A DNA stretch of 64,000 nt from Candidatus Zestomicrobium tamdykulense (GTDB lineage Archaea > Thermoproteota > Thermoprotei_A > Sulfolobales > NBVN01), in the NCBI GenBank assembly GCA_039889305.1, contig JAVVFV010000004.1, forward strand, positions 29,206 to 93,205, written 5' to 3'. The notes under the pieces were generated by a model that was given only the letters and a program-made list of their open reading frames with translations, searched no databases and had not been told where the DNA came from. Below, piece by piece: positions 16,359 through 63,969 of the stretch. The first letter of the stretch is position 1, and each line of letters begins with the position of its first letter. The translations under genes were made by a program, and so were the position numbers.

Positions 16359-16360
16359 TT

Positions 16361-18260: not shown

Positions 18261-18266
18261 CTCAGG

Positions 18267-18761
18267 TTGAGGTTTGCAGGTAAGGTTTTGGGTGTTTTCT
18301 TCATGGTTTTTATAGTTTATGTAGTGTTTTCCGGGTCTGTATCAGTTACTGGAGTCATAGTAGCTTTAGTAACATCATTAATAACTGCTAACCTCGTTAT
18401 AAGTAATCCCGGCAAGTTAATTCAGGTAAGGAGGTTTGGCTGGCTCCTCGCATACTCTGTAAGGTATTTCTTCGTGGATGAGGTTAAGGCACACTTAGAC
18501 GTGATGAAGAGGATACTACACCCTAAAATGCCCATAAATCCAGGCATAGTTAAGATCCCGTACGAAGTCGTAAGCGACTACGCTATGCTGACCATAGCCA
18601 ACTCAATAACTAACACTCCCGGTACTGTAGTAGTTGAGGTATTCCCTGAAGAGAAAGCTTTCTACGTTCACTGGATAAACGCAGTCGCGACAGAACCTAC
18701 TGAGGTGAGGAAGCGTGTCTCAGAAGTTTTTGAGAGATTCGCTAAAAGAATTTTTGATTGA
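18267..18761 (+). CDS. mbhA: MrpE/MnhE-like subunit
   Basis: INPGIVKIP and ANSITNTPGT. Confidence 0.9.
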   Translation: MRFAGKVLGVFFMVFIVYVVFSGSVSVTGVIVALVTSLITANLVISNPGKLIQVRRFGWLLAYSVRYFFVDEVKAHLDVMKRILHPKMPINPGIVKIPYEVVSDYAMLTIANSITNTPGTVVVEVFPEEKAFYVHWINAVATEPTEVRKRVSEVFERFAKRIFD

Positions 18762-18773
18762 GGTGGTGAGGTA

Positions 18774-20372
18774 ATGTATTACCTAAGCATAGGTTTGTTA
18801 GTTCCCTCACTCATAGGTTTTGCTTTCGTGCTGCCATTGTTAGGGATGATCATAAAGAATATTAGGTTCTTCCACGCGTATGCATCTATCACCTCACTAT
18901 ATGCGTTGATAGTGACTGCATATAATTTCATCATAGTTGTTAGAGAAGGGCCTAAAGCCTATCCTTTTGGTGGTTGGTGGCCTCCAATAGGTATATCGTA
19001 CGAGTTAGACGAAATAAATTCCCTTATAGCCTTACTAACTGCTTCAGTGATGTTCCTGATAACGCTATATAGTACGTGGTATATCAGGAGTTTAAAGGAC
19101 GCACCATATTACTACACACTACTCCTAGGTCTTGAGGTAGGGATGCTTGGTTGCATCTATACTGGCGACGTCTTCAACTTATTCGTTATGCTTGAAGTGA
19201 TGTCTATTAGTGCTTACGCTCTGGTAGGTTTCCACAGAAATAAGCCGGAAGCTATCGAAGCAGCCATAAAGTACGGGTTGTTCGGGGCTGTAGCCACGAC
19301 TCTCTACTTCATAGGGTCGGTCTTCATTTACGCCGCTTTCGGAACACTTAACATGGCTGACTTAACGAATAAAGTAACTCTATTCTGGGGCTACAACCTA
19401 GTTTCAGGTCCTTATTACGGTCAGATATACGCAGCTACTACAGTAGCTCTAGCTTTATCGTTATGGGCATTCACCTTCAAGTCAGCAATATTCCCTAATC
19501 ATTTCTGGCTCCCTGACGCACACCCTGAAGCACCAACCCCCGTCTCAGCAGCGTTATCAGGTCTCGTGGTGAATGTTGGTGTGTACGCAATCTTCAGATT
19601 CTTCTACACTATATTTAACCCATTCTCCTTAATGAGAGACTTAAGAGACTTAATGCTGTTGATAACGCTTGTTTTAGGACTTGCTTCAGGACTGATAGGG
19701 GCTCTCATGATGGTTGTGCAGGACGATATTAAGAGATTGCTTGCGTACTCAACGATAAGTCATATTGGTTTAGTCTTGGTAGGACTCTCTATAGGTTCTT
19801 CCCTCATATCTAGACCAGACTCACAAGCATTCGTAGACGGACTTACTGGAGCCTTCTATCACTTAATAAATCACAGTATAGGTAAGTCTCTGCTATTCCT
19901 CGCGTCAGGCGTGATAATATACATGGCTGGAGGCACAAGAAAACTTGATGAGTTAGGTGGGGTAGCTAGGAAAAAACCTGTGCTAGGTATTGCACTAATA
20001 ACGGGTGTTCTTCAGTTATTGGGTATTCCACCCTTTGGAGGATTCTTTAGTAAGTATCTGCTCTATATTTCCTACTTCGAGACAGGAGCGCCTTATATCT
20101 CAGTAATCATAAACATTGTTTCAGCGGTTTCACTCTTAGGATACATTAGATTACTCTACTCAGCATTCTTCACAATACCTAAGAGAGAATTCGTGAGAAC
20201 TAGTAGGCTACCCTTAGCAATACTCCTGGCATTGAGTATTGCGTGCTTAATGACTGGATTATTATCACCTATAATCAATGAGTGGCTACGTAGGTTCGTG
20301 GAAGCAACGACCTCAAGAGATGGGATATTTAATTACTGGCTGCAAGGCTACTTAGTTTTTTGGAGTAGGTGA
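18774..20372 (+). CDS. mbhH: MrpD/MnhD-like antiporter subunit
   Basis: DVFNLFVMLEVMS, HFWLPDAHPEAPTPVSA, KRLLAYSTISH and GIPPFGGF. Confidence 0.92.
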   Translation: MYYLSIGLLVPSLIGFAFVLPLLGMIIKNIRFFHAYASITSLYALIVTAYNFIIVVREGPKAYPFGGWWPPIGISYELDEINSLIALLTASVMFLITLYSTWYIRSLKDAPYYYTLLLGLEVGMLGCIYTGDVFNLFVMLEVMSISAYALVGFHRNKPEAIEAAIKYGLFGAVATTLYFIGSVFIYAAFGTLNMADLTNKVTLFWGYNLVSGPYYGQIYAATTVALALSLWAFTFKSAIFPNHFWLPDAHPEAPTPVSAALSGLVVNVGVYAIFRFFYTIFNPFSLMRDLRDLMLLITLVLGLASGLIGALMMVVQDDIKRLLAYSTISHIGLVLVGLSIGSSLISRPDSQAFVDGLTGAFYHLINHSIGKSLLFLASGVIIYMAGGTRKLDELGGVARKKPVLGIALITGVLQLLGIPPFGGFFSKYLLYISYFETGAPYISVIINIVSAVSLLGYIRLLYSAFFTIPKREFVRTSRLPLAILLALSIACLMTGLLSPIINEWLRRFVEATTSRDGIFNYWLQGYLVFWSR

Positions 20373-20375
20373 GTA

Positions 20376-20732
20376 ATGATGACTCCACTCAATCTAGATC
20401 CCTGGACAGCTACTTTGCTCTTGAGTAGTGTGTTAATGTTCTCATCTCTCGTAATGTATTTGGTCTATATCATATTATCTAGGAAAACAACACAGAGTAG
20501 CTCAGACTACTCAGAGCCTTATATTGGTGGGGAGCCAGCAAACATCATAAGATCTATTGATGTTTCGGTACGTAACCTCTTCTGGGGTATAGTAAGAGGA
20601 GGTGCTGGCCGCAAATTATACACATTCCTGAGAGACCAAATGCATAATGGTGTATTAAATGATTGGGGTATATACATGGTGACATACATAGGTTTGCTAG
20701 CCTTAATCTCTTTCATATATTTCATGAGGTGA
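20376..20732 (+). CDS. mbhI: MbhI-like membrane subunit
   Basis: TM helix, EPYIGGE, amphipathic stretch, HNGVLNDW, then a second TM helix; lies between mbhH and mbhM. Confidence 0.75.
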   Translation: MMTPLNLDPWTATLLLSSVLMFSSLVMYLVYIILSRKTTQSSSDYSEPYIGGEPANIIRSIDVSVRNLFWGIVRGGAGRKLYTFLRDQMHNGVLNDWGIYMVTYIGLLALISFIYFMR

Positions 20733-20737
20733 TTTAA

Positions 20738-21745
20738 GTGAACGAATCAACACCTATTTTATTAAGTATCTTCAGTGTGCTGGTATTCCTAAACCTCCTA
20801 ACACTCTGGATTGCTTCGATGCTTAGTGAATGGTGGGTAAGGAAACTGCTTGCTAGAACCCAAAGAAGAATGGGTCCCTCATATGTAGGACCTCTCGGCA
20901 TACTACAGCCTTTCGCAGACTTCCTCAAACTCCTCTTAGTGAAGACAGAACCCAATTATAAGTACGGTAGTGTAATGCTTGCCAGGATTTTCGGCTGCAT
21001 AGGGATTGGAGCTCTGGCAACCTCACTATTCTTACTACCTGTATCACCAGTAAGGATAGCTTTCAATTTTGACATAATACTCTTAATATACTTTCTTGGT
21101 GTTTTGGTAGCTGTTTCGGAATTACTCATGTTTACCTCACTAACAAACCCCTTTACAATTAAGGGTGTCTCAAGATACTCATCAATCCTGGCCCTTGCAG
21201 AACCTGCATTCTTCACAGCAACAATAGTTCCTGTTTACCTAGCAAGCCTCATTGCGAGGAAAGAGCCTGTCTTCTCTATTAGTACGACAATCGAGACCGT
21301 GTGGGGATTATGGTTCAACCCGTTAACAGCAATACCTATGCTTCTAGCAACTATAGCTGCCTTAATCTCTATACAGTCTAAACTAATGTTTCCGCCATTC
21401 AATATACCGGAAGCAGAGCAGGAGTTAATAGCTGGAGTGGAGACGGAGTTTAGTGGTCCCCTCCTAGCGCTCTTTAACTTCCTTCATGATGCAGATCTCT
21501 ACGTTCTCTCGTTAGTAGTTACCTTCCTATTTTTAGGAGGTCCGCATCCGTTTAGTGAGAATTTAGTGTTGGGAGTCTTAACTACTATCTCGAAATACTT
21601 GGTAGTCCTCACTACTATAACTATTCTTAAATCTTCTTTCGGTAGGTTCAGGATAGAACAAGGGATATCTTCAGTAATCAAATACGCATTAGTCCCTGCG
21701 TTAGTAGCTCTGATTCTCTCAGTAGTTGTGGTAGGTTTTATTTAG
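20738..21745 (+). CDS. mbhM: NuoH-like membrane anchor
   Basis: QRRMGP, GILQPFADFLKL, PFNIPEAEQELIAGVETEFSG and RFRIEQ. Confidence 0.92.
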   Translation: MNESTPILLSIFSVLVFLNLLTLWIASMLSEWWVRKLLARTQRRMGPSYVGPLGILQPFADFLKLLLVKTEPNYKYGSVMLARIFGCIGIGALATSLFLLPVSPVRIAFNFDIILLIYFLGVLVAVSELLMFTSLTNPFTIKGVSRYSSILALAEPAFFTATIVPVYLASLIARKEPVFSISTTIETVWGLWFNPLTAIPMLLATIAALISIQSKLMFPPFNIPEAEQELIAGVETEFSGPLLALFNFLHDADLYVLSLVVTFLFLGGPHPFSENLVLGVLTTISKYLVVLTTITILKSSFGRFRIEQGISSVIKYALVPALVALILSVVVVGFI

Positions 21746-22247
21746 TGCTGCACGTACTTAAAGTCTTAATAATTAAGTCTGCTAAGTAGTTTATGGTTTC
21801 CTGCACTTCCGGACTGATTTTCTCACCTAAGTTAAGGTTCCTCGCTACTATACCTAAAACCCATACATCCTTAAATAACTCCTCCCTCCTCAGCAACTCT
21901 ATGACGAGTTTAATAGGCATTGAGTGTGTTGTTACTAAAGCTACTTTGTCGTTAACTGAGTCTAGACTTGCTATAAAGTAGTTAGGAGTTTCTTCTCGTC
22001 CCCAAACCAGTGCTGCATCCACTACTAAAGCATTCTTTACTGATGATTCCTCAATAGATGACATACAGTTCTCTAGACCGAACTCACACATAATAACCCT
22101 ATCTTTAGGGAAACCACGTGCTACTAGAAGCTCACATAATCTTAAGCCAGCCGCGTCATCACTCCTTAATTCGGTACCTACGCAAACGAGATAACGATCA
22201 CCACATATCAATTCTTTAAGAATAGACTCACTCAACACCATCACCAA
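21738..22247 (-). CDS. hycI: Hydrogenase maturation protease (HycI-like)
   Basis: GTELRSDDAAG, VDA and TTHSMPI; convergent with the MBH operon. Confidence 0.88.
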   Translation of the reverse strand: MVMVLSESILKELICGDRYLVCVGTELRSDDAAGLRLCELLVARGFPKDRVIMCEFGLENCMSSIEESSVKNALVVDAALVWGREETPNYFIASLDSVNDKVALVTTHSMPIKLVIELLRREELFKDVWVLGIVARNLNLGEKISPEVQETINYLADLIIKTLSTCSTK

Positions 22248-51457: not shown

Positions 51458-52687
51458 TTGGATAGGGTATCCAATATGGTAAGCCAGAAAGTATATGTCG
51501 CGCTGCTTTTAATAGTTCTTGCATTCAGTATCGTTTCTTTCATAATTAACTATATACTAATTAATGAAGTTAGGGACATTCTCTTAAAGCAGGAATCAGC
51601 CTTAGGTAGGGTTCAGAGTAATGTTTCCGAGCTTCAGGAGCTAGTTAGCTCGCTTAACAGGAGAACTGAGGAGGTAGGGGACGTAATTAGGGAGCTACAG
51701 TTAAGGTATGAAGAACTTAGTAATAAGTTGAGGGAAGTCAAGTACCCTCTCGTAATGACTGATAGTATAGGGAGGACTGTTTTCATTAATTATGAACCAT
51801 TAAGAATAGTTTCAGTAGGTCCTTCAATAACGGAGACCTTATTTGCTCTAGGTTTAGGTGATAGAGTTGTAGGTGTTGATAGATTTTCTAATTATCCACC
51901 CACTCTTACTGAATTAATTGAGAAGGGAACTATTAAGGTTGTTGGGGATGCTTTTACTTTAAATATAGAGTTGATAGCTAGTCTCAAGCCTGACGTGGTT
52001 TTCCTTACTTACTCAGCTCCGTTAGAGAAGTATGTTAAGACCTTATCTGATTTAGGGATCTGTGTTTACGTTATTAGAGTTGAGGATATTGGGGATGTTT
52101 ACAACGTTATCATGTCTTTAGGACTAATTACGAATAGAGTTGATGCGGCTCTAAAACTACTTAATGATTTAACCGGCAGGATTATGACTACTTACTCAAG
52201 AATAGCTAGTTACCTCAACACTACCGGGGCTTTTAAGGTTAGTGTTTACTGGGAGGTCTTCCCTGATTACTGGACTTTTGGAGGAAACACGTTCCAGAAC
52301 AGCATAGTGACTTATGCTGGCGGGGAAAACATTTTCGGGAATACCGCTCTCACCTGGTTTATAGCTACTCCAGAATCTGTAGTTAACTTAAACCCGTCTA
52401 TTATTCTCATAAGCTACAATTACGGGATGTTCGGCACTCCTCAAGACTTAATAGGAATGGTGTCTTCAAGACCTGGCTGGAGCAACATTACTGCTATTAA
52501 GAGTGGAAGAGTGTACGTGCTGGGCGGTGCTGTTGAGGACATAGTCTCACGACCAGGTCCTAGACTAGGTCTAGCTATCGAGATCCTGACTAGGATCTTC
52601 TATCCTGAAGTATACAACATAACTCAGGTTCCTAGTTTTGTAGATGAGAATGTTGTTAGTATGTGGGGGATCATAATAAAATCATAA
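51458..52687 (+). CDS. btuF: Cobalamin/iron-chelate ABC substrate-binding protein with N-terminal TM and coiled coil
   Basis: RIVSVGPSITETLFALG..VGVD, ELIASLKPD, GGENIF and RPGPRL. Confidence 0.85.
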   Translation: MDRVSNMVSQKVYVALLLIVLAFSIVSFIINYILINEVRDILLKQESALGRVQSNVSELQELVSSLNRRTEEVGDVIRELQLRYEELSNKLREVKYPLVMTDSIGRTVFINYEPLRIVSVGPSITETLFALGLGDRVVGVDRFSNYPPTLTELIEKGTIKVVGDAFTLNIELIASLKPDVVFLTYSAPLEKYVKTLSDLGICVYVIRVEDIGDVYNVIMSLGLITNRVDAALKLLNDLTGRIMTTYSRIASYLNTTGAFKVSVYWEVFPDYWTFGGNTFQNSIVTYAGGENIFGNTALTWFIATPESVVNLNPSIILISYNYGMFGTPQDLIGMVSSRPGWSNITAIKSGRVYVLGGAVEDIVSRPGPRLGLAIEILTRIFYPEVYNITQVPSFVDENVVSMWGIIIKS

Positions 52688-52711
52688 TAAAGTAGTTGGT
52701 GTTATATTTTT

Positions 52712-53743
52712 ATGAGTAATGTGGAATTATTTGTTTCGTGGAGGAGAAAAAGATTTCTTACAATATTAGTGATTTCCATCTCTTTACTGTTTCTTGTTTT
52801 CTTCACACACTTAAGTTTAGGTTATAGAACGATGAACCCATTAAACGTCCTGTTTTTTGGAGTTATGCAATTAGCTGCAGGTAATTTAGGTATTGAGGGA
52901 TACAGAATTTTAAGAGTTTTAACAGCTGTTGTTGTTGGTACTGCTTTAGCTTTCTCAGGGTATTTAATGCAGTTGAGTACTAAGAATCCTCTAGCAGACC
53001 CATACATACTTGGTGTTTCTTCAGGAGCTTTATTCGCAGTCTCGCTAACACTGTCTCTCGCGGGCTACGTAACACATCCACTCATGATTGGTGTTAGAAC
53101 TCTTACTGCTTTCTCGGGTGGTTTAACTGCTTACCTAATCACTTTATTCGTGGCTTCTAGAGCCGGTATGACACCAACCTCTCTTGTTTTGGCTGGAGTT
53201 GCTGTCGGTACGTTCTTCTACTCAGCATCTCTCCTACCGCAGTACTTTATTTCTCGAGACATACATAAACTGATTGCGTGGAGTATGGGTTCTTTCGTGA
53301 GTCCTTCTGAAAGTGTTTTGGTTTTAATGGTTTTCATGTTGTTTCTGACCGCGTGTTATGTATTCCGCGTAAGATACCCGCTTAACAATCTTCAGATAAG
53401 TGACGACTTCGTGAGACAGTTGGGGAAGGATCCTGTGAGATTGAGGAGATACTCCACACTACTAGCTTCACTAATAACCTCAATTACTGTTGCTTGGTTT
53501 GGTGTGATAGGTTTTGTTGGTCTGGCCGCGCCACACATATCTAGGAGGATTCTTAAATCTAGCGACGTTAATTTTGTTTTGCCAGTATCTGTTATTTTGG
53601 GTTCACTCCTACTCACGACCTCAGACCTTCTTAGTAAGGTACTAATAACTGGTGTTGAGATCCCCGTAAACGTTATTGCGTCAATGATTGGTGCACCCGT
53701 ACTAGCTCTAGCTATAGTAGAGTTGAGGAAGTATGGTTCTTGA
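52712..53743 (+). CDS. btuC: FecCD/BtuC-family permease
   Basis: NPLADPYILGVSSGA and GVIGFVGLAAPH. Confidence 0.9.
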   Translation: MSNVELFVSWRRKRFLTILVISISLLFLVFFTHLSLGYRTMNPLNVLFFGVMQLAAGNLGIEGYRILRVLTAVVVGTALAFSGYLMQLSTKNPLADPYILGVSSGALFAVSLTLSLAGYVTHPLMIGVRTLTAFSGGLTAYLITLFVASRAGMTPTSLVLAGVAVGTFFYSASLLPQYFISRDIHKLIAWSMGSFVSPSESVLVLMVFMLFLTACYVFRVRYPLNNLQISDDFVRQLGKDPVRLRRYSTLLASLITSITVAWFGVIGFVGLAAPHISRRILKSSDVNFVLPVSVILGSLLLTTSDLLSKVLITGVEIPVNVIASMIGAPVLALAIVELRKYGS

Positions 53744-54464
53744 AGTTAGTAAGCTGAGTGTTTTTTACGACAATATCCAGATCATAAGAGAAATTAGTTT
53801 CTTTCTTAGTGAGGGGGTTGTAGCTGTAGTTGGTCCTAACGGTGCTGGCAAGACAACACTACTTAAAGCTATCTCAGGCTTAATTAATTATGAAGGCTCT
53901 GTAAAAATACTTAGTAAAGAATTAAGTACCTTCAGTGCTGAGGAGAGAGCTAGGCTAGTTACTTACGTACCACCGTTAGTTGACGCAATGCCTGACATAA
54001 GTGTGGGGGACCTAATACTGAGTGATCCATTAGTTAATAATGAAGTACTTGAGAAATACGTTGAGTTGTTTGAGTTAGGTGCTTTACTGAAGAGGAGGTT
54101 GAGTAGAGTGAGTAGTGGTGAGTTAAGTAGAGCGCTACTTGTTAAGGGACTCTCAAGAAATTCAAGAATTCTAACTCTTGACGAACCCCTCTCACACATA
54201 GACATGAGGTTCCAGCTAATACTACTAAAACACTTAAGAGTCTTAAGTAGAGAAGACAAAATAATTCTAGTAGCGTCTAACCAGCTAAACCCCCTACTAA
54301 GCTATGTAGACAAAATAATAGCACTCAAGAAAGGTGAAGCAATCTTCATAGGTAACATAACAGACTTCATAAAGTCAAACATAGCCGAAAAAATTTACGA
54401 AGTCAAATTCGAGATCATCATGAGAGACAAATATCTAGATCTAATACCTAAAGAACTCCCCTGA
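53733..54464 (+). CDS. btuD: FecE/BtuD-family ATP-binding protein
   Basis: GPNGAGKT, VSSGE and LDEPLSHID. Confidence 0.88.
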   Translation: MVLEVSKLSVFYDNIQIIREISFFLSEGVVAVVGPNGAGKTTLLKAISGLINYEGSVKILSKELSTFSAEERARLVTYVPPLVDAMPDISVGDLILSDPLVNNEVLEKYVELFELGALLKRRLSRVSSGELSRALLVKGLSRNSRILTLDEPLSHIDMRFQLILLKHLRVLSREDKIILVASNQLNPLLSYVDKIIALKKGEAIFIGNITDFIKSNIAEKIYEVKFEIIMRDKYLDLIPKELP

Positions 54465-54643
54465 GTAACCCAACCTCAATAACGCGTGCTTCGTGATAAG
54501 TAGACATCTCCTAAGAACAAAGCATACCCTAACTAATCAGCTCCTGCAACCTGCTTCTAGAGACTACGAATATTAGTGATGATAAAATGATGTCGTATTA
54601 GTACTTAACTCAGAATCCTAGAGGAGAAGTTGTTCTAATTACA

Positions 54644-54651
54644 TTTAAATA
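54644..54651 (+). promoter_or_regulatory. Putative TATA box (TTTAAATA) upstream of the MBS-like operon
   Basis: Consensus-like octamer about 50 nt upstream of ATG 54698 in a 233-nt intergenic gap. Confidence 0.35.
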
Positions 54652-54697
54652 CTTATAATCATTGATTATTTTAGTGTAGTGTGAGTGGGTCTAGCCT

Positions 54698-56233
54698 ATG
54701 CAATTAGAACCGTGGATCGCTCTAACTCCGTATCTACTCGTGGTAGGTGCTTTCTCCATAATTATATTAAAGGTCATCAGGATTTCCAGAATTTTTTCTT
54801 ATATTTATGCGCTGCTGTATACAGTGGTTTCTTTTTTGTCGGCGTTTTTAATTTTTCTTGAAGCGAAGAATGATGGGATTCTGGTTTACCCGCTTGGTGG
54901 TTTTCCTCCACCTCTCGGAATACTTTACGTCGTAGACTTGTTCTCAGCTACGATGGGGTTGTTTATTACGTCTTTCTTTCTCATTCTATATTTATTGCTG
55001 TTTTTTGTGGTAGAAGACGTAAACGAGTATTTTCTTGCTTTGTATCTGGGGCTTGAAGCCGGTTTACTAGGTATAACATACACGGGAGATCTTTTCAACA
55101 TGTTTGTTATGATGGAAGTAACACTAATATCCTCGTATGGTCTAATAGCTTTCTCGAAGAAAGCTAATGCTTACTTAGCTACGTTCAGATACGTGATGAT
55201 TGGGGGTGCTGGTGGTCTGCTCTTTTTTGCTGGTGTTACTTTAATATATTTTGCTGCAGGATCGCTTAACATAGGGCAGTTGGGTGCTGTATTTGACGGC
55301 ATAAGTATCGGATACGTAGGTCAATCAGCGTATGCTAGCACTGCGATTCTTCTATATCTAGTTCTCCTTTTCTGGGGGCTAGCGATAGATGAAGCTCTGG
55401 CACCCTTCCACTTTTGGCTTCCCGGCGCGTATTCCTCAGCAAACCCTGTTGTAGCATCTTTATTAGCTGGGATCGGGGAGGGGGTAGCGTTTTATGCTCT
55501 TATGCGTATATCTTTCACTATAGTTGGTTATGTACCAGGCTCGATTATGCTATTTCTTGTGGTGCTTGGAGTATTGACGATTCTGGTGGGTGGTGTAGGA
55601 ATGGTGTATACTAGGAGGTTAACTGAAATCGTTGCGTATAGCGTGATCCTTGATGCAGGCTACATAGCGATAGCTTTATCTCTAGGCTCACCTGGAGTTT
55701 CAGTAGCGCTTACCTACATAATCGCTCATATTCTAGTGAAACCAATTCTTTTCCTGACTGCAGGATGGGCAAGAGAATCCGTCGGTAGTGATTCGCTAGA
55801 GGAACTAAGAGGAGTACTCAGAGTTTCAAGGTCTCTACAGGTAGGATTCGTCGTTGGAGCGGCTGCAGTTATAGGTATACCGCCAACCATACTGTTTGTT
55901 GCTAAATTACAGGGATACATGATTATACTTGAGCAAGTGTGGAGGAACGTCGTATACGCAGGAGTGCTTGGTGTGATGCTGATTGGGTCGGTCCTGGCTT
56001 TGGTTTCCTTTATTAAGGCAATCTCAGTAGTGATTCTCTCACCGCCGGCTAGGTCGTTCCCCAAACCTCCAGCGATTCTTAACGCGTACGTGATAGCCTT
56101 ATCCATAGCTGTAATCATGTTCGGACTTTTATACGCTACACTCATAGAAGATCTAGTCACTAACGCCTCAAACGCACTGATTTTTGGTAGGTCTAACTAT
56201 TTAGGAACGGTTCTAAGCATGACTTGGAGGTGA
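54698..56233 (+). CDS. mbsH: MrpD/MnhD-like antiporter subunit of the MBS-like complex
   Basis: DLFNMFVMMEV, HFWLPGAYS and GIPPT. Confidence 0.88.
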   Translation: MQLEPWIALTPYLLVVGAFSIIILKVIRISRIFSYIYALLYTVVSFLSAFLIFLEAKNDGILVYPLGGFPPPLGILYVVDLFSATMGLFITSFFLILYLLLFFVVEDVNEYFLALYLGLEAGLLGITYTGDLFNMFVMMEVTLISSYGLIAFSKKANAYLATFRYVMIGGAGGLLFFAGVTLIYFAAGSLNIGQLGAVFDGISIGYVGQSAYASTAILLYLVLLFWGLAIDEALAPFHFWLPGAYSSANPVVASLLAGIGEGVAFYALMRISFTIVGYVPGSIMLFLVVLGVLTILVGGVGMVYTRRLTEIVAYSVILDAGYIAIALSLGSPGVSVALTYIIAHILVKPILFLTAGWARESVGSDSLEELRGVLRVSRSLQVGFVVGAAAVIGIPPTILFVAKLQGYMIILEQVWRNVVYAGVLGVMLIGSVLALVSFIKAISVVILSPPARSFPKPPAILNAYVIALSIAVIMFGLLYATLIEDLVTNASNALIFGRSNYLGTVLSMTWR

Positions 56234-56238
56234 GAGGT

Positions 56239-57258
56239 TTGGGATTTCTAGACTTCTTCGCTAAGTGGGCCAGGAGTAGGAGCGTGTGGATGATACATTA
56301 CTGCTCAGCATGTGGAGCGGTCGAGTTCCCGCCGCTAGTGATGGCTCCACTTGATTGGGAGAGATACGGCTTCATGCCAGCACCTACCCCAAGACAAAGC
56401 GATCTCTACGTCGGGATGGGATATTTGACAAAGAGAAGTGTTAGATTCTTCCTCAACATGTATATGCAGATGCCGGAGCCCAAATTTGTTGCAGCTGGTT
56501 GTAACTGTACTGCGACCGGAGGGCTCTACTGGGATAGCTATGCTACCTATAAGAGATTAGATGACTTCGTCGAGGTTGAGGGATGGGTTCCTGGATGCAT
56601 GCCAATGCCTGACGACTACATGAGCATGATAAAGCATTTAAGAACTGAAGTATATGAGAGAAGACCCATCACCAGACACATATCTAGAGTCAGACCTAAC
56701 GCTTTTGAGAAGATAAGACAATACGATGAAATGGAGAGGAAGTTTGCTGAGGATTATCAGAGACAACTTGCTAAATCACAGCCTGAAGTCAGCTACGAGT
56801 TCAAACAAACATTCCCTGAATGTTACGAGCTTGATGAATCCTCAAAAATCTGTAAGACATCCATAGAGCCGCTTCAACTAAGAAATACGTTAAGTTTTTT
56901 GAAAAATGAAGGTTATGAGCTTTTCATAAATATTAATGCAGTCGATTACCCCGACAAGGGGGTTATTGAGCTCTTCTACATAGTAGAAAATCCCTTCACT
57001 GGCCAGCAAAAGTGGGTCAAGACTTTCGTCAATAGAAAAGAACCCGTAGTAGATAGTGTATATGATCTATATCCGTTAGCTCTTCATATAGAGAGAGAAG
57101 TGTACGAGATGATGGGTATAAACTTCAGAGGTAATCCAGACTTGAGGAAATGGATACTTGAGGGTAATTGGGAAGGACCACCTCCTCTGAGGAAAGACGT
57201 AGATACTGCCACGTACGTAGTCAAGGTTATGTATGGGGGGTATAAGTATGGTCGTTGA
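56239..57258 (+). CDS. mbsJK: Fused NuoB-like + NuoC-like subunit (MbsJ-MbsK)
   Basis: CSACGAVEFPP, GCNCTATGG and VPGCMP, then IEREVYEMMG...PPLRKD; TTG at 56239 after GGAGGTGA. Confidence 0.9.
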   Translation: MGFLDFFAKWARSRSVWMIHYCSACGAVEFPPLVMAPLDWERYGFMPAPTPRQSDLYVGMGYLTKRSVRFFLNMYMQMPEPKFVAAGCNCTATGGLYWDSYATYKRLDDFVEVEGWVPGCMPMPDDYMSMIKHLRTEVYERRPITRHISRVRPNAFEKIRQYDEMERKFAEDYQRQLAKSQPEVSYEFKQTFPECYELDESSKICKTSIEPLQLRNTLSFLKNEGYELFININAVDYPDKGVIELFYIVENPFTGQQKWVKTFVNRKEPVVDSVYDLYPLALHIEREVYEMMGINFRGNPDLRKWILEGNWEGPPPLRKDVDTATYVVKVMYGGYKYGR

Positions 57259-58354
57259 CGTTAAGCATACCGTGGTCTACTTCGGTCCTCAACATCCGGG
57301 AGTCCCCGGTAATTTCGCATACAAGTTGTGGTTAGATGGCGAGAGAGTAGTTAAAGCAGAGCCTGTGCCGGGTTTCCTCCACCGCGGTTTCGAGAAAATG
57401 ATGGAGAACAGAACTTGGGAGATGAACGTAACGATGAGTTATCGTTTCTGTGTTGAGGACCCAGATCATCTTGAGGTTGCTTATTCATTAGCAGTAGAGA
57501 AAATATTACGTCTCAACATCCCTGAGGACGCGAAGTGGATCAGAATGCTACAACTAGAGATGGGGAGAATAGCATCACATCTTTTCTGGTCGCACTTCAT
57601 AGGAGGTAGTGTCGGGCTTAGAACACCTGCTTATTGGGCAGTAACAGCTAGGGAAGAGATCCTTAAGTGGTTTGGCAGGTTTGCTGGGCATAGGATATAC
57701 CATAATATTAGCGTTCCCGGCGGCATTAGGTATAAAGTCCATCAAAACTTCAAAGAAGACACGTTAAGAGTATTAGATTATGTAGAGGAAGTAGCCAGAG
57801 ATATTGAGAAGGCTTTACTAGGTAACAAAATCTTCAGAGCTAGGACTATCGGTATAGGGAAGATAGTTGCTCAGGACGCGATAAGACTCGGTATTACGGG
57901 ACCTGTTCTCAGAGCTGGCGGCATAGCCTACGACTTAAGGAAAAACGTGCCTTACCTGAACTATGATAAAGTTAACTTCAATATCCCAACAGAATATAGT
58001 GGAGATGCTTACGGGAGGTCAGCAGTTAGGTTTAAAGAAATATACGAGAGTATAAAAATCGCTCGTCAGGTTCTAGATGAGGTGAGACTAGAAGGCCCGC
58101 TTAGAGTTAATGTTCCTTTATCCCTTCCATCAGGAGAGGGGTGGGCTAGAGTAGAGAGCGCGAGAGGTGAGTACATGATTCACATAATTAGTACAGGAGG
58201 CAGAAGACCTTACAGAGTAAGGTTACGCAGCATGTCAATGCCACTCCTCACAACAGCGGTGGAACACATCATTAGGAACGAGGAAGTTACCATAGCGGAT
58301 TTCCCAGTAATACTGGCATCACTTGATCCGTGCCCACCTGATCTGGATAGGTGA
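57248..58354 (+). CDS. mbsL: NuoD-like catalytic subunit lacking a NiFe site (sulfane reductase type)
   Basis: GPQHPG, RFCVEDPD and DPCPPDLDR; one Cys retained at each former CxxC; no C-terminal extension. Confidence 0.88.
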   Translation: MVVDVKHTVVYFGPQHPGVPGNFAYKLWLDGERVVKAEPVPGFLHRGFEKMMENRTWEMNVTMSYRFCVEDPDHLEVAYSLAVEKILRLNIPEDAKWIRMLQLEMGRIASHLFWSHFIGGSVGLRTPAYWAVTAREEILKWFGRFAGHRIYHNISVPGGIRYKVHQNFKEDTLRVLDYVEEVARDIEKALLGNKIFRARTIGIGKIVAQDAIRLGITGPVLRAGGIAYDLRKNVPYLNYDKVNFNIPTEYSGDAYGRSAVRFKEIYESIKIARQVLDEVRLEGPLRVNVPLSLPSGEGWARVESARGEYMIHIISTGGRRPYRVRLRSMSMPLLTTAVEHIIRNEEVTIADFPVILASLDPCPPDLDR

Positions 58355-58830
58355 TGTCGATGGTTACCTCAACATTCATTAAGGCATTCAAATACGTACT
58401 CAAAAAGCCTTACACGAGGCTAGTGCCAGCAAGTGACCGACCCTATAAATCGGACGTCTTAAGAGGTACTCACGTGCTTGATATGAGTAAATGTACTGGA
58501 TGCTCTATGTGTCAGCAGGTATGTCCTGCAGCATGTATAGATATGGTGGTCGTTGAGGGTAGTTACCATCAGAATCCGAGATCCAGGTTCCCGCGAATAG
58601 ACCACGGCAAATGTACTTTCTGTGCGTTATGTGTTGAGTACTGCCCATTCAACGCGCTCTCGATGACGGATGCGACAGGGTTTGAGCTCTTCACGATAGA
58701 TAAATCCACTACGTTTAAGGAACCAAGAAAATTAACAGAGTACTCAAACAAGATCACAGTTACTAAAGAGCTCTTTAAGGGGGCATATCAAACTATGAAG
58801 GTTGAGAAAACAGAGCAAGCAAGACAGTGA
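58351..58830 (+). CDS. mbsN: 2x[4Fe-4S] NuoI-like subunit
   Basis: CTGCSMCQQVCP and CTFCALCVEYCP. Confidence 0.9.
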   Translation: MMSMVTSTFIKAFKYVLKKPYTRLVPASDRPYKSDVLRGTHVLDMSKCTGCSMCQQVCPAACIDMVVVEGSYHQNPRSRFPRIDHGKCTFCALCVEYCPFNALSMTDATGFELFTIDKSTTFKEPRKLTEYSNKITVTKELFKGAYQTMKVEKTEQARQ

Positions 58831-58837
58831 GGTGATC

Positions 58838-59107
58838 ATGATGATTTTAGAGTTTGAGGCGTATCTCATGATTCCCTTCATCATCGCTATGATAATTTAC
58901 TCAGTAAGAGCGTTCACGTCAAAAAACCTAGCAGATATGGTGCTCGCCATCGACGCGCTCACGGTAGACCTTGTAGTTATTCTTGTGCTAATAGCTCTTT
59001 ACTATAGATCTCCTTACCTACTTATAGGGGCGGTTCCTCTTTCCGCATGGATATTCATACTAGATCTAGCTGTAGCGAAATATTTGCACAGGGGTGGTAA
59101 AACTTGA
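58838..59107 (+). CDS. mbsB: MrpF-like subunit
   Basis: ADMVLAIDAL; ATG after GAGGTGA. Confidence 0.82.
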   Translation: MMILEFEAYLMIPFIIAMIIYSVRAFTSKNLADMVLAIDALTVDLVVILVLIALYYRSPYLLIGAVPLSAWIFILDLAVAKYLHRGGKT

Positions 59108-59475
59108 TAGAGGTTATCCTATTTTACATAGGTTTGGTGTTGACAGTCATAGGTGGGGTGCTTGACGTGCTTGCATCGATAGGTTTCTTCCGGTTTAAGG
59201 ACTTCTATGTGAGATTACATGCAGCCACTATTGGTGCGATTGGTGGTGGATTCTATCCACTGATTGGGTTGGCACTAATCTCACTAGGTTTGGATTTAGA
59301 TTTTCAGATGAAAACAGCATTCTTTGGTGTATGTGTCATATCAGCTGTCTTAATAGCGTGGGGGGTTCCAGCTGGTACTCACATATTAGCTAGAGCTGCT
59401 TACAGATCTCGAGAGGCGATTCCACAAGTCATAGAAGATAAGCTTAAGAAATACTTGGAGGGTGAGAAGAAATGA
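59104..59475 (+). CDS. mbsC: MrpG-like subunit
   Basis: RFKDFYVRLHAAT and THILARA. Confidence 0.87.
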   Translation: MIEVILFYIGLVLTVIGGVLDVLASIGFFRFKDFYVRLHAATIGAIGGGFYPLIGLALISLGLDLDFQMKTAFFGVCVISAVLIAWGVPAGTHILARAAYRSREAIPQVIEDKLKKYLEGEKK

Positions 59476-59723
59476 TTCCCTTAGTCTTGGCGTCCATCGC
59501 ATCAACTCTCGCATTGATAGCTGCTGTCATAACTCTCTATACGAAGGATGTCGCTAAAGCTGTTGTTGTAGCTGGTATTGAGTCGGTTTTTTACGCGGTC
59601 GTGCTCTCGGTCTTCCTAGCTCCGGATCTCCTCATAGCATATATAGCGATAGGGTTAGGCGCAAACACAGTCATCCTGCTTTATGTGCTTTCCAAGGGTG
59701 AGAGATATGAGGAAAATATTTGA
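59472..59723 (+). CDS. mbsD: MbhD/DUF4040-like subunit
   Basis: FLAPDLLIAY, three TM helices. Confidence 0.8.
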   Translation: MIPLVLASIASTLALIAAVITLYTKDVAKAVVVAGIESVFYAVVLSVFLAPDLLIAYIAIGLGANTVILLYVLSKGERYEENI

Positions 59724-60492
59724 GGCCGTTACGTTTCTGATCATCGGAGTCGGGATATTCGCTCTAATCTACTATTCCGGGATCTTACTCACTACGAAAG
59801 GACTAAATACCTTAGCTGAAGCATATCTGAACTTCATACCCAACGTAAGTAATCAATATACTTCATGGAGTTACGAGGTAGTGACTTCAGTTATATGGGA
59901 TCACAGAGGTTTCGACACCTACTTCGAGACATCAGTACTTTTCCTAGCCATAGTAGCAGCAGTAGGACTACTTGAAGGTGTTAGGAAGTATTTAGATATC
60001 GAAGGCACCACCATAATTACTAAGCTAGTCTCAAAGCTCCTGGCACCAGTGATTGTAGTGATAAGTGTCTCAATAGCTCTTCACGGACATATATCTCCTG
60101 GTGGCGGATTTCAGGGTGGTGCTTTATTCGTTATAGCTCCGCTTTTGTTGATGTTAGCATTCAATGCTAGTAAGATCTCAGAGAAAGGATTCGAACAAAA
60201 TAAGCTTATACTGATGAGAGCGCTAGCCGTAACCTTTATAGCGGTAGTTGGACTAACACCTCTAATATATTCACTAGTAAGTGGCGCAAACGCCTACTTA
60301 TTTCAGAATATACGTAAGCCAGATTCCACGTTCTCATACTCCCCAATTCTAGAGGTAGGGAACATAAGAGTCCTGCTCTCCGGCAACCTCATAATTTTCA
60401 ACTTACTAGAATACGTAGCAGTCTTGACTGGTTTTACGGTAGCTCTCTTCTTACTAACTATAGAGTTTGAAGGAGGTGGAGAAAATGATTGA
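59707..60492 (+). CDS. mbsE: MrpB-like subunit (E+F fused)
   Basis: WDHRGFDTYFE and GHISPGGGFQGG. Confidence 0.87.
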   Translation: MRKIFEAVTFLIIGVGIFALIYYSGILLTTKGLNTLAEAYLNFIPNVSNQYTSWSYEVVTSVIWDHRGFDTYFETSVLFLAIVAAVGLLEGVRKYLDIEGTTIITKLVSKLLAPVIVVISVSIALHGHISPGGGFQGGALFVIAPLLLMLAFNASKISEKGFEQNKLILMRALAVTFIAVVGLTPLIYSLVSGANAYLFQNIRKPDSTFSYSPILEVGNIRVLLSGNLIIFNLLEYVAVLTGFTVALFLLTIEFEGGGEND

Positions 60493-60892
60493 GGAGGTAT
60501 TGTTCTACTACATAGGCCTTATAGTATCTCTAACAATCGCTCTAGCGATTTATGGAGTAGCAACAAGACCGCACATAGTGAAAAAGATGGCGCTCTTTAC
60601 GATACTTGGTGACGCCATATATGTGCTACTTGTCTACTTAGGGTATAGGCTGGGTTCTAGGATGCCTCCAGTGTATCCAGGTGGCACTCTAGAAAACCCT
60701 GTTTTTCCTTCAAGCAATAATATACGTTCTTTCATCTCGTTAAGTGTTGATCCAGTTCCTCAAGTACTGATAGTTACCGCGATAGTAATAGGGCTTGCTA
60801 CATTCATTATGATGGCTATCATAGCTATTAAGATTGCTGAGGAAAAAGGAACTCTTAACCTAAGGAAGATTGAGTTAGGTGAGAGTGAATGA
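60485..60892 (+). CDS. mbsG: MrpC-like subunit
   Basis: DPVPQVLIVTAIVIG. Confidence 0.88.
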   Translation: MIEEVLFYYIGLIVSLTIALAIYGVATRPHIVKKMALFTILGDAIYVLLVYLGYRLGSRMPPVYPGGTLENPVFPSSNNIRSFISLSVDPVPQVLIVTAIVIGLATFIMMAIIAIKIAEEKGTLNLRKIELGESE

Positions 60893-61392
60893 AGCTACTT
60901 TCGGCATTGGTTTACGCGATAGTGTTGTCAATCATATATTTAATTTACACAGGCGTGTTCAACACCGTCGAGGTACTTATAGCAGTTCTTGTAGGAGTGG
61001 TTGTAGCATACATTCTAGCTGACGATATAGTTAAGGACGTCTCCAAGTTGTCTGTTGTTAGGTTCCTGAAGGCGGTCTGGTACTTACTGAAGTACTTCAC
61101 GGTAATTGAGGCAGGAGCACATTGGAGTGTGGTGAAGCTCATCATTAATCCGCGGGCTAGGTATAGCCCAGCAATAGTAAGTGTTCCCTACAACCTCGAG
61201 AATGAGTACTCAGTAGTGTCCGTAGCTAACTCCATTACAAATACTCCTGGAACTGCTGTCATAGATATAGATGAGAAGAGAAAGCTCTACTTCGTTCACT
61301 GGATCGATGCGCCTGCTACGGATGAGGAAACCGCGAGAAACCTCATATCCTCTAAATTCGAAGAATATATTAAGAGTATATTCGAGAGGTGA
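60889..61392 (+). CDS. mbsA: MrpE-like subunit
   Basis: YSPAIV and ANSITNTPGT. Confidence 0.88.
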   Translation: MKLLSALVYAIVLSIIYLIYTGVFNTVEVLIAVLVGVVVAYILADDIVKDVSKLSVVRFLKAVWYLLKYFTVIEAGAHWSVVKLIINPRARYSPAIVSVPYNLENEYSVVSVANSITNTPGTAVIDIDEKRKLYFVHWIDAPATDEETARNLISSKFEEYIKSIFER

Positions 61393-61736
61393 TAGACGTG
61401 GACGTGTTCGAGTTCATAGCCACGTACGTCGTGCTTGGCTCATTAGTTGGTGTAATGGTTTATTTGGTCTTCTATTATTTATTCCAAAAATTCATTGCAT
61501 CAGCAACGCCGGAGGAAAGGAACACCGTGTCGGACCTGCCTGTAATGGGTGGCTTTATATATGATGAATTACCTACTCAGTCCGTTACTCAGATGTTAAG
61601 AGATATCTTCAGGAGAGCGTTGGGACCGAGTAGGTTGCGTGAAGTAATAAGGCTCTATAAGTTCGTTGATATGTGGTATATCCTAGCACTATTCGTGCTT
61701 TTACTCATGATAGCGATTTTCTTGTTGATTAGGTGA
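61389..61736 (+). CDS. MbhI-like small membrane subunit
   Basis: TM helix, LPVMGG, amphipathic helix, second TM helix; same position (before the NuoH-like gene), size and topology as 20376-20732. Confidence 0.6.
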   Translation: MIDVDVFEFIATYVVLGSLVGVMVYLVFYYLFQKFIASATPEERNTVSDLPVMGGFIYDELPTQSVTQMLRDIFRRALGPSRLREVIRLYKFVDMWYILALFVLLLMIAIFLLIR

Positions 61737-62716
61737 TGAATATGGAGTTCTTGCACCTAATCCTACAAGCTCTGGTGTATCCAGGTCTCCTCTTCACGAT
61801 ACTCTTTATAATCTTTACGCAGTGGGTTAACAGAAAGCTTACTGCTAGGTTGCAGTTCAGGAGAGGACCAATACACGCTGGTCCTGCAGGATTACTACAG
61901 CCGTTAGCCGATCTACTAAAGCTCGTCGCGAAGAAAGACCTAATTAATAAGTACTCAATGAAGCTAAGTCCAGTAATCTTCGTAAGCCTCGCCATAGGGT
62001 TTATTATCGTAGTGCAGCTAGCTTTACCAGTCGCGTACGCACCTATTAGTGCTCCGTACGACCTAATAGTACTGCTCTACTTCATGTTGATCGCGCCTCT
62101 AGCTATCGCTTACTTAGCAGTATCTCACCCTAACCCATATACTACTATTGGGGCTGCAAGATACCTCGCATTACTAATAGTATCTGAGCCTGTGTTTGCT
62201 ATCACTCTCTTAGTGCCTTTCTTCTTAACGTCTAGACTGAATATACCGGCTTTTTCAATGTACTGGACGATACTTCATTCCAGCATGGCTTGGACTATAG
62301 ATCCGCTGGGAGCGCTCTCCATGGCACTAGCCACTATAGCAGCGTTTATATCGATGTTGGCAGTCTTATTTGTTAAGCCGTTTGACGCACCGGAAGCAGA
62401 ATCCGAGATATATTGGGGGGTATTCACGGAAGTCGGTGGACCTAGACTCGCGCTAGGGTTCTTCCTAAAATTTGCTGAGAGAGTGGTTTATCCGTTAATA
62501 TTTGCCGGGCTCTTCCTGGGAGGTACGTGGCCCTTCATGAATGCAGGCTGGGCATTACAGGTGCTCGTCATGTACTTTAAGGCCCTCATAGTATTTGTTG
62601 TGGTAACTATTATAGATGCTGTATTACCGAGATATAGACCAGATCAGGCAGTTGCATTCATACTAAAGTATGTGTACCCAATCGCCATAATAGCACTAGC
62701 GTTAACCCTCATTTAG
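61733..62716 (+). CDS. mbsM: NuoH-like membrane anchor
   Basis: QFRRGP, GLLQPLADLLKL, PFDAPEAESE and PRYRPDQ. Confidence 0.9.
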   Translation: MMNMEFLHLILQALVYPGLLFTILFIIFTQWVNRKLTARLQFRRGPIHAGPAGLLQPLADLLKLVAKKDLINKYSMKLSPVIFVSLAIGFIIVVQLALPVAYAPISAPYDLIVLLYFMLIAPLAIAYLAVSHPNPYTTIGAARYLALLIVSEPVFAITLLVPFFLTSRLNIPAFSMYWTILHSSMAWTIDPLGALSMALATIAAFISMLAVLFVKPFDAPEAESEIYWGVFTEVGGPRLALGFFLKFAERVVYPLIFAGLFLGGTWPFMNAGWALQVLVMYFKALIVFVVVTIIDAVLPRYRPDQAVAFILKYVYPIAIIALALTLI

Positions 62717-62834: not shown

Positions 62835-63266
62835 TTACTCCAAGGTTTTCGCTACTTGATATGTTCCGTCTCTGAAAATAGTTATTTTTATTGGCTTGAT
62901 TACTCTAGTTCCTTCGATGTTTTCTGGAGCGTTGATTCTTATGTAGTCATATATTGTGGTGAAGTTTCCTCTAAGCTTTACTTTTTTCTCGTCGGCTAGC
63001 TGGATTAATTTTTGAGGTATTGTGACCAGGTGTGTTCCTGGTTCTATAATTATTTCTCCAGCCTTGATTAAGTCTTTGTAGATCTTTAGTGTTTCCTCAG
63101 CTAGTCTTACTTTTCTTAGAGCGCTTTTCTCTATGACTGAGACATTCTCTCTAGTTGTTCCTATGATTTCAGCTACTTCTTTCTGTGTTTTTCCTTCAGT
63201 TCTTAGCTTGAGTACCTTGTACTGCTTTTCTGTAAATAATCCATACTTTCTTTCCTTACTTCCCGT
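62835..63266 (-). CDS. tfx: Tfx-family DNA-binding protein lacking a canonical start codon (not in ORF track)
   Basis: Manual translation: TGSKERKYGLFTEKQYKVLKLRTEGKTQKEVAEIIGTTRENVSVIEKSALRKVRLAEET...EPGTHLVTIP...RDGT..., stop at 62835-62837. Frame open to 63290; the only in-frame ATG/GTG/TTG is a TTG two codons before the stop. Confidence 0.8.
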   Translation of the reverse strand, partial: TGSKERKYGLFTEKQYKVLKLRTEGKTQKEVAEIIGTTRENVSVIEKSALRKVRLAEETLKIYKDLIKAGEIIIEPGTHLVTIPQKLIQLADEKKVKLRGNFTTIYDYIRINAPENIEGTRVIKPIKITIFRDGTYQVAKTLE

Positions 63267-63330
63267 CTTGACCGCCCAATATACTACTCTTTATTAACGC
63301 TTAATAATAGAATTCTTATATATTTCTTTA

Positions 63331-63969
63331 GTGATCATGATGTCGTATCTGGTCTACCGAAACAGGAGCTTCTACTTTAGAGTGAAGAGTGAAGTTCTTG
63401 ATTTTCTTATTTCTTGGGTTGTCTTGAGTTTCTCTTTTGCTTTATTCATGCGTTCAGGTCTTGATAAATTACTTCTGAGTCTCGCGTATTCTTCGGTGGG
63501 TGTTGGGTCTGCCTTCATACTTCATGAATTAGCTCACAGGCAGGTTGCTAGGGCTTACGGTCTTGAAGCTAGGTATAGAGCGTGGTATTTAGGATTACTC
63601 ATAACTCTGGCAGTAGCTTTAATTAATGCGGCTGTCAGGTTGCCGGTATTGTTTGCTGCTCCAGGAGCTGTAGTGATTTACAGGTATTGGGGTCGTGTAG
63701 ACTCTGTTGCTGAGTTAAGGGTAGCGGAATCAGGTCCTCTAACCAACATAGCTGTAGGGATTGCTGCGTGGATCGCTTTCCTAGCTATGTCACCAACACT
63801 AGTGTTTACTGAAGTACTATATTATATTATGAGAATTAATGTCTGGATAGCATTCTTTAATCTCTTACCTATACCCCCACTAGATGGCTCAAAAATAATT
63901 AGGAGATCCCTCATAGAGTGGGTAATTATATTCATAATAAGCGTAGTTACGCTGAAATTACTGACTTAA
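63331..63969 (+). CDS. Site-2 protease (peptidase M50)
   Basis: HELAH, AESGPLTN and FNLLPIPPLDG. Confidence 0.92.
   Translation: MIMMSYLVYRNRSFYFRVKSEVLDFLISWVVLSFSFALFMRSGLDKLLLSLAYSSVGVGSAFILHELAHRQVARAYGLEARYRAWYLGLLITLAVALINAAVRLPVLFAAPGAVVIYRYWGRVDSVAELRVAESGPLTNIAVGIAAWIAFLAMSPTLVFTEVLYYIMRINVWIAFFNLLPIPPLDGSKIIRRSLIEWVIIFIISVVTLKLLT

Follow-up and report, generated by a model that had tools for sequence, protein, structure and literature searches.

In accounts of complex I evolution, pump number tracks redox free energy, with one pump in the membrane-bound hydrogenase (MBH), two in the membrane-bound sulfane reductase (MBS), and four in complex I (PMC8165549). The MBS of Pyrococcus furiosus (formerly MBX; PDB 6U8Y) contains two antiporter-like subunits, MbsH and MbsH', and no separate MbhI, whose role is taken by helix HL and transmembrane helices (TMH) 15-16 of MbsH' (PMC8165549, PMC7684303). 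In MBH (PDB 6CFW), MbhH is the one such subunit and MbhI is encoded separately; its anchor is of the MbhM type, and an Mrp-like module is present. Here we describe an operon of Candidatus Zestomicrobium tamdykulense that combines features of both. It occupies positions 54698-62716 (forward strand) of a 64,000-nucleotide stretch of contig JAVVFV010000004.1 (the window). From sequence comparison, we read it as a Desulfurococcales-type "MBX/MBS-like" complex, a mosaic ferredoxin-oxidising respiratory complex. The mosaic is probably lineage specific, with an MBS-type J-K-L-N block, the sulfane-reductase-type head, swapped onto the local MBH-type membrane cassette. The hybrid of an MBS-type catalytic arm and an MBH-type membrane arm had been proposed in the first-pass annotation of the window, and it stands: L and J are of MBS type, N leans the same way, and H, MbhI, and M are of MBH type. 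That annotation had also described the composition of P. furiosus MBS correctly, and its sequence observations (the L and J motifs, the single MrpD-like gene, and a 115-residue open reading frame (ORF) in the mbhI slot) were reproduced at their coordinates.

The gene content of such operons has been known since 2009, and the window operon is a further member of a described family. Smar_0645-0657 of Staphylothermus marinus (annotated "mbxL") and Tagg_1025-1036 of Thermosphaera aggregans are orthologous to it and share its gene order over 12-13 genes; they have been described as "mbh/mbx-related". J and K are separate genes in S. marinus and fused in this window. In Table 4 of Anderson et al. 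2009, one Pfam00361 gene was listed for the Smar operon versus two for mbx, the "mbhI-related" row was left empty for the Smar operon, and the gene of ∼116 residues remained unassigned; the S. marinus antiporter genes were described as a duplicated cassette joined to divergent Nuo-like subunits (PMC2678158). Spring et al. 2010 named the Tagg operon "MBX-related ferredoxin-NADPH oxidoreductase" (PMC3035292). Both genome papers predate the MBS biochemistry and structures, and a mosaic of MBS head and MBH arm is not discussed in them (PMC2678158, PMC3035292). No paper was found that revisits the operon since that work or that links MBS with Desulfurococcaceae after 2017; Schut et al. 2013 and 2016, which the search did not bring up, may cover it. 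The explicit description as an MBS-head/MBH-arm mosaic, the assignment of an MbhI homologue, and the conflict among the subunit trees appear to be new.

The large subunit L (57233-58354; 373 residues, or 368 from the ATG at 57248; PF00346) is of the MbsL type. It contains the motif RFCVEDPD and ends with DPCPPDLDR directly before the stop codon, so that one Cys is found at each former NiFe CxxC site. As in P. furiosus MBS, there is no NiFe site, no C-terminal extension, and no cleavable tail. The window also encodes a NiFe MBH of the op1 type (13617-21745) with the gene order J K L N B C D EF G A H I M. Its large subunit (14480-15682) carries RVCGICNTVH and DPCISCMER followed by a C-terminal tail. 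HypF (11213-13543) lies directly upstream of this MBH operon and a maturation protease (21738-22247, reverse strand) is convergent downstream; neither hyp genes nor a maturation protease were found near the 54698-62716 operon. Unlike MBH, the operon under study thus lacks the NiFe CxxC pairs, the protease-cleaved C-terminal extension, and neighbouring hyp genes, and its J and L belong to the MBS lineage. Against solved structures, L scored 283 bits with P. furiosus MbsL (6u8y_L), 210 bits with Thermus thermophilus Nqo4, and 127 bits with MbhL (6cfw_L). BLAST gave 268-303 bits to canonical MbsL (40-42% identity) compared with 198 bits to the MbhL of the same window (33% identity). Both L cysteines are invariant in the aligned motifs of the clade formed by this operon and its orthologues. 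An in-frame TGA noticed in two L orthologues was dismissed, as it terminates the K gene that lies upstream and shares the frame of L.

The operon was also compared with complex I (Nuo/Nqo). The core NuoB/C/D/I/H subunits have homologues in the operon, and L is nearer to Nqo4 than to MbhL. The quinone ligands His38 and Tyr87 of Nqo4 align to Pro and Val in L (alignment to 2fug_4), and J has a CxxC motif instead of the tandem CC. No equivalents of NuoA/J/L/M/N are present beyond the single MrpD-like subunit, and the operon encodes Mrp A, B, E, F, and G-like subunits.

The J-K fusion (56224-57258, 344 residues; PF01058 and PF00329) combines a NuoB/MbsJ-like and a NuoC/MbsK-like domain. Its N-terminal half, the J domain, contains YCSACGAVEFPP and aligns with MbsJ (6u8y_J) without gaps at 132 bits compared with 53 bits for 6cfw_J. 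In the alignment to 6u8y_J, C27-x2-C30 corresponds to C25/C28 of MbsJ. From the conserved Trp to ERxG, the present J and the J of canonical MBS both have 28 residues, whereas 19 of the 20 MBH J sequences scanned have 31. The motif HYC[ST]ACG..E.PP is conserved. According to Yu et al. 2020, a loop shortened by three residues gives MbsJ a three-Cys, catalytically open proximal cluster (PMC7684303). The MbsJ-type short CxxC loop predicts the same for the present J, namely a three-Cys proximal cluster with an open iron. The adjacent N (58351-58830, 159 residues; Fer4 families) is a NuoI/MbsN homologue of the 2×[4Fe-4S] ferredoxin-like type. The shortened J loop, the two clusters of N, and the Mrp-like Na+/H+ module are all shared with P. 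furiosus MBS.

The first-pass annotation had stated that the two cysteines of MbsL perform polysulfide reduction. This is contradicted by mutagenesis in P. furiosus, where MbsL C85A/C385A and MbsJ C25A retain dimethyltrisulfide reductase activity and the proximal [4Fe-4S] cluster of MbsJ, with its three Cys ligands, is regarded as the catalytic site (PMC7684303). Because the MbsL C85A/C385A mutant is active and catalysis lies with the MbsJ cluster, the role of catalyst given to the L cysteines was wrong. Judged from the motifs, the catalytic signature relevant here sits in J, not in L, and is present in this operon.

The membrane arm differs from that of MBS. Exactly one PF00361 gene was found in the operon by Pfam, H (54698-56233, 511 residues, 1e-39), an MbhH/MrpD-like antiporter subunit. 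The pair MbsH plus MbsH' of MBS is absent, and the arm is composed as in MBH, with one MbhH, a separate MbhI, MbhM, and MbhA-G. H scored 152 bits with 6u8y_H, 131 bits with 6cfw_H, and 65 bits with MbsH'. It keeps the Glu of transmembrane helix (TM) 5, the His/Lys of TM11, and the Lys of TM12. In TM8, the Lys corresponding to MbsH K250 is replaced by Glu within the motif [AGS]-E-[GA]-[VI] in all eight clade members compared; elsewhere this position is Lys (MbsH and some MBH H) or Asn (other MBH H). The TM7 residue is acidic in the same eight of eight, as in MbsH, whereas most local MBH H have Lys. These TM7/TM8 changes map to H residues ∼230-232 and ∼260 and are the same in the loci L012-L014, L092, and L105-L107. 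The membrane anchor M (61733-62716, 327 residues; PF00146 1e-62) is of the NuoH/MbhM type. It gave 169 BLAST bits to M of the same-window MBH compared with 70-91 bits to canonical MbsM.

The presence of one antiporter subunit only, as claimed in the first-pass annotation, was followed up in the rest of the genome. At 94% completeness, the assembly (1.30 Mb, 48 contigs) contains four PF00361 genes: each window operon accounts for one, and the other two belong to a third cluster, located on a different contig. No unlinked second MrpA/D-type or other antiporter-like gene was found in this 94% complete assembly. In a complete Thermogladius genome, all seven PF00361 genes lie in clusters with their own L. 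An orphan second pump acting in trans was considered for Thermosphaera/Desulfurococcus-like genomes and rejected. The extra PF00361 gene there sits in a complete Mrp-like cassette that stands alone (B C D EF G A H), its antiporter gene is of MrpD size (522 residues), and no gene of MrpA/H' size is present in it. No copy of this stand-alone cassette was found in the present genome.

The first-pass annotation had taken the 115-residue ORF (61389-61736) for a counterpart of MbhI. It lies directly upstream of the NuoH-like M gene, and a 118-residue MbhI-like gene (20376-20732) takes the same slot in the other operon. Searches with the single sequence against Pfam, against PDB with phmmer, and against the MbhI of the other operon with BLAST were all empty. 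Orthologues were located in the same operon slot in seven relatives. Members of the family have a TM helix at each end and, between the two, a P-V-M-x-G loop followed by an amphipathic helix and a D/x-W-[YF] motif. With hhalign, the family profile matched an MbhI profile at 97.2% (E 3.5e-11, 108 columns). The MbhI profile was built from Desulfurococcales MBH operons plus Thermococcus MbhI and itself matches P. furiosus MbhI (6CFW_I) at E 7e-5. The homology is visible because family profiles were compared; the single sequence matches nothing. Against the C-terminal 150 residues of canonical MbsH', the 115-residue family reached 41% and MbhI 92.6%. An AlphaFold2 model of the protein has the order TM-loop-helix-TM at low confidence (pLDDT 66.6, pTM 0.30). 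On the profile evidence, the 115-residue protein is assigned as an MbhI homologue, in support of the first-pass annotation. Relative to P. furiosus MBS, the operon thus has one pump, not two, no MbsH', an MBH-type M anchor, and a separate MbhI homologue in place of TMH15-16 and HL of MbsH'.

Phylogenetic trees separated the operon into two parts. In the L tree, rooted on MBH, the topology was (Nuo,(this clade, canonical MBS)) with a support of 99/96 and each group monophyletic. In the comparison with MbsL, MbhL, and NuoD proposed in the first-pass annotation, the product of 57248-58354 therefore groups with MBS and not with MBH or Nuo. The J tree also placed the clade with canonical MBS (98/94). 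The N tree leaned to canonical MBS (94/90), a grouping that was not starred. A different relationship was obtained for the membrane arm. In the M tree, the clade is sister to the op1-type Desulfurococcales MBH M, apart from canonical MbsM (100/99). In the H tree, it is sister to local MBH H with the Thermococcus MBH copies outside (100/100). MrpE grouped with the local MBH arms of both hydrogenase types (100/99), with Thermococcus MbhA on the side of canonical MBS, and MnhB likewise grouped with local MBH arms (100/100). The same division emerges from the BLAST scores. In the approximately unbiased (AU) test, a union of clade L with op1-type MBH L was rejected at p 5e-67 and a union of clade M with canonical MbsM at p 6e-5. 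The conflict of L and J with M holds whatever root is chosen, and module exchange must therefore have occurred. On the trees, the J-K-L-N block has a history of its own, distinct from that of the remaining genes. One replacement of the whole block is enough to explain this, because J-K-L-N is contiguous and in the same order in both parental operon types. The proposed event is that an MBS-type J-K-L-N block took the place of J-K-L-N in an MBH-type operon and that H was shifted to the front.

The same data bear on an origin without any swap, in which J and L arose in situ from local MBH J and L through loss of the NiFe site and the MBS grouping is a long-branch or convergence artefact. Such a history would account for a gene order identical to that of the local MBH operon except for the position of H and for a membrane arm of the local type. 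It has to be set against the AU rejection of clade L with op1-type MBH L and the higher identity of L to canonical MbsL than to the same-window MbhL. The three-residue deletion in the J loop, motifs in J, and motifs at the C-terminus of L are moreover common to MBS and the clade, and the J tree agrees independently of L. We regard convergence as highly improbable.

According to the trees, H, B, C, D, EF, G, A, I, and M would belong to a local MBH-type cassette that serves the NiFe hydrogenases of these genomes, and the membrane subunits of this operon and of the same-window MBH are mutual closest relatives. The cassette is common to three complexes with deeply diverged catalytic modules, which demonstrates shuffling or homogenisation of arms within these genomes, in line with what Anderson et al. 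2009 noted for S. marinus (PMC2678158). MnhB of the clade is paraphyletic, as the Staphylothermus-type copies (L092, L106, L107) group with local MBH (96/89) and not with L012-L014 and L105. This suggests that paralogous membrane cassettes of one genome have continued to exchange sequence, through recombination or gene conversion.

To survey the architecture among relatives, 80 loci encoding L relatives were annotated. Nearly all complete canonical MBS loci have the order A B C D E G H(∼490) H'(∼620) M J K L N; in two canonical loci a single H frame of ∼1050 residues is present. This order spans Thermococcus, Thermoplasmata, Thermotogota, Bacteroidota, Spirochaetota, Synergistota, Bacillota, and many sulfur-oxidising Gammaproteobacteria. 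In contrast to it, the operon described here has the order H-JK-L-N-B-C-D-EF-G-A-I-M (ORF list and Pfam). Every fully read locus of the Desulfurococcales type, namely L012-L014, L092 (S. marinus), and L105-L107, with L identities down to 47%, is arranged as H J(K) L N B C D EF G A I M and contains one H gene. Among 121 genomes of the GTDB order, an L orthologue of at least 49% identity was present in 21, distributed over four families; the next matches fall to 38% or below and are MBH or Nuo. Canonical MBS was not found among these 121 genomes. The one-pump hybrid architecture is a conserved feature and not a chance arrangement.

The first-pass annotation had further proposed that the complex kept the ancestral membrane arm and is an intermediate in the evolution of complex I. 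In full, this relic hypothesis states that the NiFe site was lost in a complex of MBH architecture, that the clade preserves the one-pump, MbhI-containing arm, and that MBS and complex I gained MrpA-like subunits later. L and J of the clade are indeed sister to all sampled canonical MBS and not nested within them, the architecture and gene order are MBH-like, and the arm is conserved across at least four families. The positions of M, H, MrpE, and MnhB speak for another origin, since these subunits fall in one clade with local Desulfurococcales arms that belong to two deeply diverged hydrogenase types. In the MrpE and H trees, the Thermococcus MBH copies lie outside this cassette clade. The AU tests leave L and J in conflict with M under any root, and the MnhB paraphyly points to ongoing cassette exchange. 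A relic also requires two independent gains of an MrpA-like subunit. Since Nuo lies outside the pair of clade and canonical MBS and has, like canonical MBS, an MrpA-like subunit with helix HL, one swap is simpler than two gains. The placement of Thermococcus MrpE and H outside the cassette clade and the finding of the clade in one order only also favour a derived mosaic. The retained-arm proposal found no positive support, and we consider it unlikely. The same judgement applies to the variant in which a one-pump, MbhI-containing arm ancestral to MBS and complex I was kept only in Desulfurococcales and its resemblance to local arms is due to later gene conversion; this too is an improbable course of events. 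By itself, the operon provides no new evolutionary intermediate.

By homology to the characterized complexes, a reaction path can be proposed for the derived mosaic. Reduced ferredoxin would deliver electrons to the two [4Fe-4S] clusters of N, from which they would pass to the proximal cluster of the J domain. This cluster would reduce sulfane sulfur (polysulfide) in a chamber formed by L, J, and M. Coupling would proceed through the β1-β2 loop of L, the TM5-6 loop of M, and the TM1-2 loop of the MbhI homologue, and would drive one MbhH-type proton path together with the Mrp-like Na+/H+ module. The outcome would be one pump here compared with two in canonical MBS.

Several points weigh against the swap or against this reaction path. 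The direction of the swap is not given by the trees, because the clade and canonical MBS are reciprocally monophyletic sisters, which makes a relic possible. A change of partner may bring rate shifts, and these could bias the trees of M and H. The AU groups were defined post hoc, with the trees already in view, and the K tree was not used, as the K set held some J sequences. A Foldseek search of PDB with the low-confidence model of the 115-residue protein gave no meaningful match. With respect to function, T. aggregans has an orthologous operon and is nevertheless inhibited by elemental sulfur (S0), although H2S is formed on S0 addition (PMC3035292). Because a carrier of the operon is inhibited by S0, energy-conserving S0 respiration is not a given. 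The chamber is partly composed of MBH-type M and MbhI, and substrate access may differ from that in MBS; the chamber entrance is reported to be narrower in MBH (PMC7684303). The change of Lys to Glu in TM8, specific to this clade, would alter the central charged axis of H.

Some of these functional points would fit the same mosaic with an acceptor other than sulfane sulfur, in which the complex detoxifies or reduces another small oxidant or has a partner yet to be identified. The label "sulfane reductase" would then be mistaken. The operon is found in T. aggregans and relatives, whose growth is inhibited by S0 (PMC3035292), the L cysteines are invariant in the clade even though P. furiosus does not need them for catalysis (PMC7684303), and both the MBH-type M and MbhI in the chamber and the clade-specific Glu in TM8 set the complex apart. 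On the other hand, the MbsJ-type short CxxC loop and the motif HYC[ST]ACG..E.PP are conserved. S. marinus, which requires S0 and is without other known sulfur reductases, has this operon (PMC2678158), and the H2S produced by T. aggregans when S0 is supplied (PMC3035292) also speaks for sulfane sulfur. A different acceptor deserves to be kept in mind but does not appear likely.

If the mosaic complex reduces sulfane sulfur, it would be a natural, long-conserved exception, with an MBS-type head driving a single pump. The gene complement of the operon indicates that a J-K-L-N block may function together with M and MbhI of the MBH type through the "three-loop" coupling interface. Modularity and pump stoichiometry could be tested in cultivable Staphylothermus, Desulfurococcus, Thermosphaera, and Thermogladius.

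The 12 ORFs of 54698-62716 are all on the forward strand and overlap by 4-40 nucleotides, and this tight spacing is consistent with one transcription unit. Pfam families were assigned to 11 of the 12, the exception being the 115-residue protein. Between N and the MbhI homologue lie the genes for an MrpF/MbhB-like protein (58802-59107, 101 residues; PF04066) with local MBH copies as top BLAST matches, an MrpG/MbhC-like protein (59104-59475, 123 residues; PF03334, BLAST comparison), and an MbhD-like protein (59472-59723, 83 residues; PF13244). These are followed by an MnhB-like protein (59683-60492, 269 residues; PF04039 and a weak PF20501), equivalent to a fusion of MbhE and MbhF, the NuoK-like MrpC/MbhG (60467-60892, 141 residues; PF00420, BLAST comparison), and an MrpE/MbhA-like protein (60889-61392, 167 residues; PF01899 4e-32). 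The intergenic region upstream of the operon (54465-54697, forward strand) contains a TATA-like box, ATTTAAAT, at 54643, ∼55 nucleotides before the first ATG, which was found by a regex scan and is a putative promoter. No SurR-type GTTN3AAC motif was detected by regex scan upstream of either window operon. Scans for sigma-70 promoters and terminators performed no better than on shuffled sequence and are not applicable to an archaeal host.

Directly 5' of the operon, at 51458-54464, a three-gene ABC uptake system (binding protein, permease, and ATPase) of the FecCD/iron-siderophore or cobalamin type is encoded. Between the last operon gene and an M50 peptidase gene (63331-63969), the reverse strand has a stop-to-stop frame of 151 codons (62835-63290) with a helix-turn-helix-like stretch, LFTEKQYKVLKLRTEGKTQKEVAEIIGTTRENVSVIEKSALRKV; no ATG, GTG, or TTG start in this frame gives 60 residues or more.

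The third cluster of the genome (contig C15, ∼73000-85200, reverse strand) is a complete Mrp-linked NiFe hydrogenase with a K-L fusion of 566 residues (CGIC/CFSC). It has its own J, N, M, and Mrp-like module with two antiporter-like subunits (553 and 508 residues). A 145-residue protein precedes M, and a SudA/GltD-like flavoprotein (355 residues) and a 4Fe-4S protein follow. The type matches Smar_1057-1071, or "dehydrogenase-linked". The stand-alone cassette of a complete Thermosphaera/Desulfurococcus-like genome (locus L153, 8611-12711, reverse strand) encodes MrpF, MrpG, MbhD, MnhB, MrpC, MrpE, and the MrpD-like protein of 522 residues, with no J, K, L, or M genes, in the gene order of the cassettes inside respiratory operons.

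Variation was also observed among L subunits of canonical architecture. Both cysteines are lost in L066, L073, L075, L079, L084, L085, and L090 (RINVVEPD ... LYVVAPEIDR). The C-terminal Cys is lost in L064, L083, L089, and L091 (HTYPPEIER), of which at least L091 also lacks the N-terminal RxC. These variants inside the MBS clade look like graded steps toward a NuoD-like state. L homologues of 668-671 residues, from a Heimdallarchaeota (L057) and an Anaerolineae (L069) metagenome-assembled genome, are apparent fusions of an upstream N/J-like part with L and end in ...LDNCPADHDR. Canonical two-pump MBS-type operons are widespread in Gammaproteobacteria that oxidise sulfur (Sedimenticola, Thiodiazotropha, Thiohalocapsa, Thiomargarita, and Parasulfuritortus, among L015-L062) and in other bacteria. 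N of those bacterial operons has ∼600 residues, a NuoI-like core with a large extra domain, compared with ∼150-200 residues in archaea, Mesoaciditoga, and Caloramator.

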